This document shows, one piece after another, positions 30,001 to 33,000 of a stretch of DNA of 64,000 nucleotides; the first letter of the stretch is position 1, and each line of letters begins with the position of its first letter. The DNA comes from Candidatus Levyibacteriota bacterium (lineage in GTDB: Bacteria; Patescibacteriota; Microgenomatia; Levybacterales; UBA12049), in contig JBBSGT010000001.1 in NCBI GenBank assembly GCA_038253825.1, positions 11,819 to 75,818 of the forward strand, read 5' to 3'. Position numbers: made by a program.

Positions 30001-33000
30001 TGATCTCTCCTATACAATTAAAGATAATCACCTTGTTTTCACTTTTGTAATGGAAAATAGAGGAAATATTATCTTAACTCCTACGGGGAATTTCCAAATA
30101 AAAGATGGATCGGGAAAAGTATTTGAAACAATCCCACTTGGCAACTTAGGTGCAGTATTCCCAGGAAAGCCCACGACAATTACTGTTACCTCAAAAAAAG
30201 ATGCTCCGTCTTTTGGCCAATATATTGCTACTGTCACGGTTAATTATTCATCTCTCAAATCAATCACAAAAAGTCTGACATTCTTTCTTTTCTTCCATGA
30301 TTGGTCTGTGATTCTTCCTGTGCTTTTATTGCTCCTGCTTATAATTCTTTTCATTATTATAAAAAAGTATTTATCAAGAAAACATAAATTCCAACAAATA
30401 GCACAACCGGAAATTTCTACAAACAAACCACAATCAGCATCATTTGCGGCAAAGAATATATCTGGAGAAAATGTAGATCAAGTATTTATTGCACACCATA
30501 TTAAATTGCTTGGAGTAGCTGTTCTTATAAGCGTTCTTGTCTTGAGCAGCCTCTTTGCATTTATCTTAAAGGACTTTGTTTTTAGTCCCATAATGCCGCA
30601 TGCTCAAGGATCTTCTACACAGTCAACTGTTCCAAGCAACGCTCCGCTTAGCAAACAGAACACAGTACCCACAGAGACAAGCATACCAATTAATAAAGCC
30701 GATATGAAAGTTATTATTTTAAACGCGAGTGGGAAAGCTGGCGTCGCAAAAGCACTTGGGCAGAAATTATCCAAAGATGGATTTTCAGTAGCAAAAATAG
30801 CCAATGCTGAGGGCACTTCGACACAAACAGTTATACAATATCCGATAGGTAAAAATGAAGAAACAGATTTACTTATGGAAGAATTAAAGAATGAATATGC
30901 TTCAGTTACAAAGGAAGCTTCTGATTCCGCTGTTTTTACCATTATTATTGGTAAGTAATATTTCAATCCTTTTCAATTTATTGTATACTTTTATGCGTGC
31001 ATGCTAAACGTGTGATTGTTAATACTCATATTGAAAAAACAGCAGGGACGTCCTTACTGCGATTCCTTGAGCAAACCATAGGCAAAAAACGTGTCGCCTT
31101 TTATGATCCGACCACAGACAGCGTGATTAAAATATCAGATCTATTTGTCTCTCCTTCAAATGATATCATTGATCAACTCCAGCTCAAGTCATATGCATTC
31201 TGGCCTCTGCTGAAACGATTTTATTTTAATACCCGATCAAACAAACGATACCAGACTACTGTTCCAAATGACATTGCTATTATTCATGGGCACTTTGTTG
31301 CGAATCGTTTCGATAGTTTACTGAAAGATCCTATCCGGTCAGTCGTGATTCGTGATCCATTAAAACGCATGCGTTCGCAATATGATCACTGGAAACGAGC
31401 AAAAGGAAGAAATCAGTGGCGTATAATGATCCCTTATGATGCCCAAATGAGTTTTGAAGAGTACGCCTTGCTTACTGTCATGCAAAATTATCAGACTAAG
31501 GCACTTGCAGGGAAGGATATCGCATCTTTTGATGTCGTTGGTGTTACCGAGCACATCGATGTTTTTACAAATAAACTGTTTGAAGTGTTGATTGAAGAAG
31601 GACATATAAAGAAAAGCATTCGCATGAATTCAGTAAAAAAGTTAAATCTCCATAAGAAGACTCATGAAACAACAATGGAATTTGAAAAGAAATTTAAAGT
31701 TTTTCATAAAGAAGATTATGAACTCTATAGGCAGGCACTTTCCCTTGCAAAGTAATTTAGTTTATCCAACCCCAATTGATAAATACGGTTGAGAAGAAGA
31801 GAAGGAAGATTATAAAAATTGCCACCGTACCTTCATACCAAATGCCCTTTAGTTTCATTGCCAAAAATATAAATAAAGGGAAAATCACTGTCTCATATCT
31901 TGCATATGAAGTAAAACTTTTGATAAGAAGTGGCGCAATGCTGAGACTAAGAATAATGTACCACAATTCAGGACGGAGAGCTTTTTTACTTTTAATAAGA
32001 AGAATTAATCCGATTGCAAAGGTAATTATTTCTGTTTTTGAGACATTATAATCATGCCAAGGAAGTGAGAAGAATTGATAAATGGCAAGGATGTTTGTTT
32101 GAACATTTTCAATAAGCGAAACTTTTGGTCCCCAAAAAGCATGGGTAGTTATCCAAACAGTAGGATCACCCATATTTACTTCACCGACATACAATAAAAG
32201 CATAAGTGACGCAAACGGCAATAAAAGTACTGCTGTAGCTTTCCATAAGGAAATTTTTTTCTTTTGTAAATCAGTAATAATTGCATATAGCAATGGAATA
32301 ATAAGAAAAAAACCATTCACTTTTGTTACATACAGAAGTGCCAGTGAAAGTGTAATATGTACCCATTTTCGCTTCACCAAGGCATAACTAAACCAAACCA
32401 AAAGAAGCAAAAAAAGGCTTTCTGCGTAGTAAGCGCGATAAAAAAGACTCAATGGAAAAAACAACATGAGAAAATTTGTGCGCATGGCTATCTGATGAGA
32501 ATACAGTTTGCTGACGACGTAATATGTAGCAAAAAAGAGTGCAATGAGAATAATGTTACTGAAAATAAAAGCCGAAACAGCAATGTTGTGAATAATAGTA
32601 TTTATAAACGCAACGCTATAGGGATAAAGCGGAAAAAAAGCATAGGCATACTGATCCAAAAAGACATGATCCCCATGAGCTTCAATTTCTGATTGTGTTG
32701 TATAACCAGCTTTTGCGATACGGTAATACCACTGACCATCCCAGGCGCTTAGTGCATTGACAAGATTAAAATTCCCTTGCGTTACGCGTGTATCTGCCAC
32801 ATAATGAAAGCCTGTTCCATATAGGTACTTATTAAATGGCAACAATTGGTAGGAAACCATTAAAAAAGCATAATAAAAAAGTTGCAAAGCAATGAAAATA
32901 AGAAGACCAATCTTAAAATACCTCTTAGTGAACATATAATAAATTATTTGTTACTGTAAGCAAGAAGTCAATACGCAGGACAGTTGCTATAGCTTGCAAT

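Follow-up and report, generated by a model that had tools for sequence, protein, structure and literature searches.

Within a stretch of 64,000 nucleotides from Candidatus Levyibacteriota bacterium (assembly GCA_038253825.1, contig JBBSGT010000001.1, positions 11,819 to 75,818 of the forward strand; hereafter, the window) lies a gene for a 252-residue protein that very probably is a sulfotransferase dependent on 3'-phosphoadenosine-5'-phosphosulfate (PAPS). With moderate confidence, we favor its being a soluble O-sulfotransferase that is fed by a fused ATP sulfurylase/adenosine-5'-phosphosulfate (APS) kinase (Sat/CysC) and that may act on a sugar of a lipid-linked or envelope glycoconjugate. 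In relatives, its gene directly adjoins those of the fused enzyme and of a membrane glycosyltransferase, an arrangement that is suggestive, though not proof, of sulfation of a glycoconjugate of the cell envelope. The enzyme family and its chemistry are already known, and the window protein is a new, uncharacterised member that is poorly captured by current models; at NCBI, a member of the cluster at least 90% identical to it carries the name "hypothetical protein".

A first-pass annotation, made from the sequence alone, had placed this open reading frame (ORF) in the Sulfotransfer_2 (PF03567; HS2ST/HS6ST-like) family, and the placement was borne out by its homologues, though its own score is sub-threshold. 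A search of 5.8 billion proteins produced 61 homologues, with E<=1e-23 for 59, and those with names came from metagenome-assembled genomes (MAGs) of Candidatus Levyibacteriota and Roizmanbacteria, consistent with the streamlined genome that the annotation had remarked on. PF03567 was present in the precomputed annotation of nine listed homologues and, in an alignment of 44 homologues that are 30-80% identical to the window protein, it was matched by 30 at E<=0.01 (best E 4.4e-8). Matches to PF00685 (Sulfotransfer_1) were weak and confined to six of the 44, and neither the profile nor the closest fold supports membership of the SULT enzymes. Against 1.84 billion representatives, a profile built on the family retrieved 159 clusters at E<=1e-30, and relaxing the limit to E<=1e-10 and E<=1e-3 raised the number to 2,144 and 10,424, respectively; the more remote relatives exceed the PF03567 threshold, at 25-77 bits. 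By these profile matches, the family is a distinct, divergent subfamily, dominated by the Candidate Phyla Radiation (CPR), that grades into the wider Sulfotransfer_2 (HS2ST/HS6ST-like) enzymes, and the term "carbohydrate-type" used in the first-pass annotation is best taken to describe this family resemblance.

Both of the PAPS-binding motifs that had been called in the ORF were seen, at residues 11-19 and 119-127, with their key residues among those invariant in all 44 homologues (I12, E13, K14, G17, G98, H99, F100, R119, P121, R124 and S127). In the first, the predicted 5'-phosphosulfate-binding (PSB) loop HIEKTAGTS, the residues H11, T15, T18 and S19 are also at least 90% conserved; the family profile aligned the loop to HIQKTGGTT of HS6ST, and a predicted strand (7-11) leads through it into a helix (14-28), the geometry of a PSB loop. 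The second, RDPLKRMRS, was aligned by the same profile with RDPIERLVS of HS2ST and RDPVSRYLS of HS6ST, and likewise has the geometry of a 3'-phosphate-binding motif, with a strand (113-118), a turn and then a helix (121-134). Between the two motifs lies H97-G98-H99, in which H97 is at least 90% conserved, and the profile matched "ihGHF...RDPLeRmiShY" with "YHGHV...RDPIERLVSYY" of HS2ST (4ndz/3f5f). The second histidine of the HS2ST HGH is chain residue 444 of a maltose-binding protein fusion, and it becomes His142 if an offset of 302 is applied, which is arithmetic from the construct layout. His142 is the catalytic base of HS2ST, and its H142A mutant has <1% activity (PMC6094399); by way of this fusion-offset arithmetic, the invariant H99 is its predicted equivalent. 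The residues that have been described as defining the family, namely a PSB lysine and glycine, a serine of the phosphate-binding (PB) helix and a histidine catalytic base (PMC11625862), agree with those conserved in the family of the 252-residue protein.

The first-pass annotation had allowed that the motif similarity might find no support in profile search or fold prediction; both supported it, with HS2ST as the best match. A search of the PDB sequences with the single sequence gave nothing relevant, and it was only the family profile that succeeded, with matches to HS2ST (E 4.6e-4) and also to HS6ST. An AlphaFold2 model built on the family alignment had a mean predicted local distance difference test score (pLDDT) of 89 and a predicted template modelling score of 0.85, and showed a sulfotransferase fold, a central parallel sheet between helices, that is nearest to the PF03567 members. 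Foldseek searches with the model ranked HS2ST first (probability 1.0, E 1.8e-6), and a bacterial sulfotransferase and NDST1 came next. The tyrosylprotein sulfotransferases (TPSTs) ranked well below HS2ST and HS6ST, and the fold matches do not place the protein among the TPST/RaxST-like enzymes. Homology thus argues for the use of PAPS as the donor.

The ORF exists as it had been delimited, on the forward strand with a GTG start, and is the only member of the sulfotransferase family in the window. One database copy (P0001) begins at a GTG at 31012, five codons further on, for a protein of 247 residues; the longer form is preferred because the ATG start of orthologues aligns with position 30997 and because NCBI holds a 252-residue member of the same 90% cluster. 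The ratio of nonsynonymous to synonymous substitution rates (dN/dS) is 0.083 against the closest relative, locus L012, and 0.10-0.11 against two more distant relatives, and therefore the gene is a functional one under purifying selection. Hydropathy over 19 residues peaks at 0.85, and the protein, devoid of transmembrane segments, is soluble and cytoplasmic. A variable insert of 47-59 residues (residues 48-94) was modelled at low pLDDT; considered as a possible membrane anchor, it proved to be only modestly hydrophobic, with a mean best 11-residue Kyte-Doolittle value of 1.2, a net charge of about +3 and no convincing amphipathic peak. Compared with L012, the sulfotransferase is 79% identical at the amino acid level with a dS of 1.35, and both flanking genes are 89% identical, the one for the membrane protein described below with a dS of 0.61; the greater divergence of the sulfotransferase reflects either faster evolution or exchange by recombination.

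Table 1. Features of the window that bear on the predicted sulfotransferase, with the basis of each assignment.
Feature	Position	Strand	Basis
Predicted sulfotransferase gene, 252 aa, GTG start	30997..31755	+	ORF listing, homologues, AlphaFold2 model and fold matches
Predicted 5'-phosphosulfate-binding (PSB) loop HIEKTAGTS, residues 11-19	31027..31053	+	Conservation, HS6ST alignment, model
H97-G98-H99, predicted catalytic base region	31285..31293	+	G98 and H99 invariant; H97 at least 90% conserved
Predicted 3'-phosphate-binding motif RDPLKRMRS, residues 119-127	31351..31377	+	R119, P121, R124 and S127 invariant
Predicted bifunctional ATP sulfurylase/APS kinase (Sat/CysC), 605 aa	19928..21745	-	Pfam, NCBIfam, motifs
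Polytopic membrane protein, predicted GT-C glycosyltransferase fold (Gpi18/PIG-V/PMT_2-like), 392 aa	31757..32935	-	Fold, Pfam tags of homologues
Putative WxL/WxL-interacting surface-protein cluster, six genes, 9.2 kb	21796..30951	+	Pfam, blastn against L012
Genes of the WxL cluster	21893-22795, 22752-25499, 25558-26694, 26775-28439, 28513-29433, 29438-30958	+	ORFs

A source for the donor is encoded nearby. The first-pass annotation had named a bifunctional ATP sulfurylase/APS kinase in the same locus, and the gene passed the cut-off of the corresponding NCBIfam equivalog, NF004040 (765.7 bits against 669). Its product contains PUA_2, ATP-sulfurylase (1.8e-80) and APS_kinase (1.5e-52) domains, together with QTRNPLHRAH and GRDHA, which we take to be sulfurylase motifs, and GLPSSGKST, presumably the P-loop of the APS kinase; by domains and motifs it is thus confirmed as an intact bifunctional sulfate adenylyltransferase/adenylylsulfate kinase. 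The APS kinase step is required only for PAPS, and PAPS synthesis consumes ATP. Domains of a PAPS/APS reductase (CysH), sulfite reductase, PAP phosphatase (CysQ/NrnA) or sulfate permease were not found among the larger ORFs of the window, a scan that did not take in every small ORF.

In the window, the PAPS gene and the sulfotransferase gene are 9.25 kb apart, with a surface-protein cluster between them that is taken up below, and the link between the two that the first-pass annotation had drawn turned out to be stronger in related genomes than in the window itself. Five genomes (L012, L008/L009, L010/L011, L015, which is the same locus as L034/L035, and L001) share a gene order of MutS, MutL, Sat/CysC (reverse strand), sulfotransferase (forward), a membrane protein of 392-393 residues (reverse) and UvrA, and their sulfotransferases are 58-79% identical to that of the window. 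Here, Sat/CysC and the sulfotransferase are direct, divergent neighbors separated by ~100-140 nt, and the full Sat/CysC adjoins the sulfotransferase in L008, L010, L012 and L015, and only its APS-kinase part in L001. The direct divergent adjacency in related Levyibacteria argues that the two genes form a dedicated module that makes and uses PAPS, and it is likely that Sat/CysC is the dedicated donor supply of the sulfotransferase. The L001 gene (9346..9894) is a stand-alone APS kinase of 182 residues, the sulfurylase part being absent at that position. Several of the records examined (L015, DATLSZ010000030.1; L017; L022; L024-L026) bear the title "Candidatus Acidiferrales bacterium" or "uncultured Gammaproteobacteria". 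The full synteny of L015 with the locus of the Levyibacteriota, and a UvrA that is 86.5% identical, make at least this one taxonomic assignment look mistaken, the cause being mis-binning or misclassification.

On its other side, the sulfotransferase gene is convergent with the gene of the membrane protein, with a gap of 1 nt between the two. The window protein itself had no Pfam match at E<=1, and its sequence profile found no match in the PDB, but PMT_2 was matched by its L001 orthologue (E 0.0033), and many of its homologues are tagged with PF04188 (PIG-V), PF13231 (PMT_2) or both, under names such as "Gpi18-like mannosyltransferase". An AlphaFold2 model (pLDDT 94.7) gave Foldseek top matches that were all GT-C proteins, namely STT3, ALG9/12, ArnT, EmbA-C and PimE, at probabilities of 0.98-1.0, together with AftA and PglB, and an invariant D65 lies in the loop that follows the first transmembrane segment, the topology being inferred. 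Because of these fold matches and the Pfam tags of its homologues, the protein is assigned, on its predicted fold, to the GT-C superfamily, and is filed in neither PF04188 nor PF13231. Enzymes of the GT-C class take their sugars from polyprenyl-phosphate-linked donors at the outer membrane face. The GT-C gene stands beside the sulfotransferase in seven genomes (the window, L001, L008, L010, L012, L015 and L036), the most divergent pair being that of L036, at 48% and 53% identity, and the gaps of ~1-130 nt between the two are kept while other genes around them change.

The contexts of the more distant homologues are heterogeneous, and one of them is informative with regard to the acceptor. P0266 (L014 8001..10244, 747 residues), which matches the family profile at E 4.6e-42, combines a glycopolymer-export ABC ATPase of the Wzt/TagH type with two Sulfotransfer_2 domains in one fused protein, and its gene adjoins that of an ABC-2 permease. 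P0266 may be a sulfation-coupled polysaccharide exporter, and it ties a relative of the window protein to lipid-linked glycopolymer export. Repetition of the domain was also seen elsewhere in the family: P0295 and P0308 each have two stretches that match PF03567, suggesting tandem sulfotransferase domains, and P0278 has three that match the family profile. A second clade (L002/L016, L017, L018 and L019; 41-47% identical) has its own conserved neighborhood, around 6300..11600, with three divergent upstream genes of ~279, 700 and 221 residues that have no significant Pfam match, and a convergent downstream gene for a phosphatase/nuclease-like protein of the Exo_endo_phos (EEP) family.

From these pieces, a route for sulfate can be proposed. 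The fused Sat/CysC would convert sulfate to APS and then to PAPS; in the sulfotransferase, K14 of HIEKTAGTS would bind the 5'-phosphosulfate, and R119 and S127 the 3'-phosphate; and H99 would deprotonate the acceptor hydroxyl for an in-line transfer of the sulfate. With both enzymes in the cytoplasm, the acceptor has to be accessible inside the cell. Sulfate would then be added, on the cytoplasmic face, to a sugar of an envelope glycoconjugate that is lipid-linked or otherwise membrane-associated, and export would follow. Such a lipid-linked sugar or envelope precursor is the best guess because of the conserved GT-C neighbor and the Wzt-fused relative; taken by itself, the proposition that the acceptor is a glycan is possible at a little under even odds, and a glycan acceptor and a functional link to the GT-C protein are both weakly suggested. 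A bolder proposal would join all three genes, for the PAPS synthase, the HS2ST-like enzyme and the GT-C protein, into a minimal module of the Levyibacteria clade in which a sulfated polyprenyl-phosphate-linked sugar is delivered to an extracytoplasmic acceptor. This is improbable, and we know of no precedent for a sulfated polyprenyl-phosphate sugar donor. If true, GT-C enzymes would have a type of lipid-linked donor that has not been described for them, and the CPR its first sulfated surface glycoconjugate; a sulfated envelope would possibly be relevant to attachment to host cells.

Several observations weigh against a glycan sulfotransferase with a dedicated donor supply. The 252-residue protein alone reached only E 0.0045 and 17.6 bits against PF03567, the gathering score of which is 22, and no NCBIfam model matches it. 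The neighborhood evidence comes from one clade, and since the whole MutS-MutL...UvrA-UvrC region is syntenic in it, the adjacency may partly reflect inherited gene order and not function. L033, with a sulfotransferase that is 51% identical, has neither neighbor, and no Sat/CysC or GT-C gene was found within 10 kb at the 14 loci whose homologues are <47% identical. In a pooled Pfam scan of 107 neighbor ORFs at ten distant loci, genes for glycans, lipids or sulfur were not enriched, the only recurrent families being Response_reg (3), Exo_endo_phos (3), and Formyl_trans_N, EamA and Lipase_GDSL_2 (2 each). As for the GT-C gene, a homologue at 39% identity has no sulfotransferase next to it and adjoins an EF-Tu gene and a ribosomal-protein operon, and the module itself contains no polyprenyl-phosphate glycosyltransferase or flippase.

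The alternative that survives best, an unlikely one but still to be reckoned with, has an enzyme of the same class acting on a small molecule or lipid, such as a membrane lipid, a quinone or a host-derived sterol-like compound, in the manner of BT_0416 or mycobacterial Stf3, with the GT-C gene being unrelated. The absence of glycan genes from the distant contexts and the restriction of the GT-C link to one syntenic clade would both fit such an acceptor, and the cholesterol sulfotransferase locus of Bacteroides likewise consists of PAPS genes and a sulfotransferase (PMC9417993). However, the best matches in sequence and structure are carbohydrate enzymes, HS2ST and HS6ST, the Sulfotransfer_1 matches being few and weak, as noted above; the GT-C gene has remained tight to the sulfotransferase despite the turnover around the pair; and in one relative the sulfotransferase domains are joined to a glycopolymer-export ATPase.

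The possibility that Sat/CysC serves ordinary sulfur assimilation, its position being inherited order, and that the sulfotransferase-like protein may be inactive or use another donor, is a quite improbable one. It would account for the synteny of the whole region in the clade and for distant family members without a nearby PAPS gene, and the 9.2-kb insertion in the window shows that the adjacency is non-essential. Yet the PAPS-binding and catalytic residues are all invariant and the low dN/dS speaks of constraint, and L001 has retained an APS kinase beside the sulfotransferase without the sulfurylase part there. Assimilation also fits poorly with the lack of a PAPS/APS or sulfite reductase among the larger ORFs of the window and, to our knowledge, CPR genomes generally are without cysteine biosynthesis.

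The cluster that separates the two genes in the window is, judging from its domains, a complete WxL-type surface-protein cluster in a CPR genome, WxL clusters being known mainly from Firmicutes. Pfam identified WxL, WxLIP_PGBD, SdrD_B and LytR_C domains: three of the proteins share a conserved C-terminal block, and two of these three match Pfam WxL; two more are WxL-interacting PGBD proteins, of which one is fused to LytR_C, and the sixth is an SdrD-B-like protein of 915 residues. In a blastn comparison with L012, window positions 19893-21795 and 30952-31759 were collinear and only 28 nt apart in L012, which identifies the intervening cluster as an insertion, in this genome only, that lies outside the conserved module. 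No homologues of it were present in any of the other loci compared, including all five relatives that share the locus; its G+C content is slightly higher (0.41-0.43 against ~0.36), and a search for terminal repeats flanking it found only paralogous repeats internal to the cluster. The last WxL gene ends 38 nt before the sulfotransferase start on the same strand, and no promoter- or terminator-like site was identified in this gap, the scans being near background (63 promoter hits against 48.8 expected, and 14 terminator hits against 9.4 expected). Co-transcription is therefore plausible, and it is the one point in favor of a protein or peptide (tyrosine) sulfotransferase of secreted proteins, RaxST-like, with the upstream WxL-cluster proteins as its targets; this is very improbable, however, as a recent insertion absent from all relatives cannot explain a conserved sulfotransferase gene, and the TPSTs rank well below HS2ST and HS6ST, and a WxL-related function was rejected.

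Other parts of the window merit brief mention. On the reverse strand at 11188..13814, a PEP-synthase/PPDK-like enzyme is apparently split into overlapping ORFs, one with PPDK_N (12264..13814) and one with the PEP-utilizers mobile domain (11188..12267). At 5685..9963, a histidine kinase and a response regulator are found beside two membrane proteins with DUF347 repeats and a VTT/DedA-family protein. At the window edge (62151..63914, reverse strand) is a gene for a protein like the coupling proteins of type IV secretion (T4SS-DNA_transf, TraG-D_C), which may mark a mobile or conjugative region.

The CPR bacteria have genomes of ~1 Mb and a presumed lifestyle of attachment to other cells, and their envelope chemistry is almost unknown. 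Against this background, the conserved pair of a PAPS-making and a PAPS-using gene speaks for sulfation as a trait that the lineage maintains. The open-access literature yielded no paper that connects CPR/Patescibacteria with sulfotransferases or with the use of PAPS. Sulfated glycans are regarded as rare among bacteria: one paper has called them unique to cyanobacteria (PMC8205485), and a review counts six genera (PMC11625862). The same review points out that the Pfam sulfotransferase seeds are biased to animal glycosaminoglycan enzymes and miss bacterial polysaccharide sulfotransferases (PMC11625862), and the family of the window protein, sub-threshold yet clearly homologous, is an example of that bias. 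The ~159 clusters at E<=1e-30 are also a source of small soluble enzymes with which new acceptor specificities could be explored.

Of the known systems, the nearest in sequence and structure are the PF03567 members HS2ST (3f5f, 4ndz) and HS6ST (5t03), which share with the window protein a PSB loop with its lysine, the RDPxxRxxS motif and an HGH with the catalytic base. The identity is only 19-24% over ~185 aligned residues, and the PSB loop of HS6ST has a Gln where HIEKT has an invariant Glu. HS2ST and HS6ST also have a Golgi type II anchor and trimer/extension elements, whereas the window protein is bacterial, soluble, 252 residues long and without them, and its acceptor cannot be heparan sulfate. 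For the module as a whole, the ArnT pathways offer a parallel, as they too pair a GT-C transferase, which moves a sugar modified in the cytoplasm from undecaprenyl phosphate, with a cytoplasmic sugar-modifying enzyme, and ArnT was among the GT-C fold matches, but the Levyibacteria module lacks an ArnC-like polyprenyl-phosphate glycosyltransferase and a flippase, and the parallel is offered as an idea only. In function, the precedents are NodH (Nod factor), the rhizobial KpsS/LpsS, mycobacterial Stf0 and the Xss sulfotransferases of synechan, a cyanobacterial exopolysaccharide, which perform cytoplasmic, PAPS-dependent sulfation of envelope or secreted glycoconjugates (PMC11625862; PMC8205485), by description the same kind of function as that proposed here. 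NodH belongs to Sulfotransfer_3 and has an RxG PSB (PMC11625862), and the genes of NodH, KpsS and Xss are within nod, kps and xss polysaccharide clusters with many glycosyltransferases, in contrast to the single GT-C gene beside the window gene. In gene organization, a close parallel is the cholesterol sulfotransferase locus BT_0411-BT_0416 of Bacteroides thetaiotaomicron (PMC9417993). There, the acceptor is a host sterol and PAPS synthesis is spread over several genes (Bt_0411 to Bt_0415) that include a putative sulfate importer (PMC9417993), whereas here there is one fused Sat-CysC gene and no transporter gene was found in the window; the layout, a dedicated sulfation module with a sulfotransferase directly beside the genes that make its PAPS, resembles that proposed for the Levyibacteria pair.

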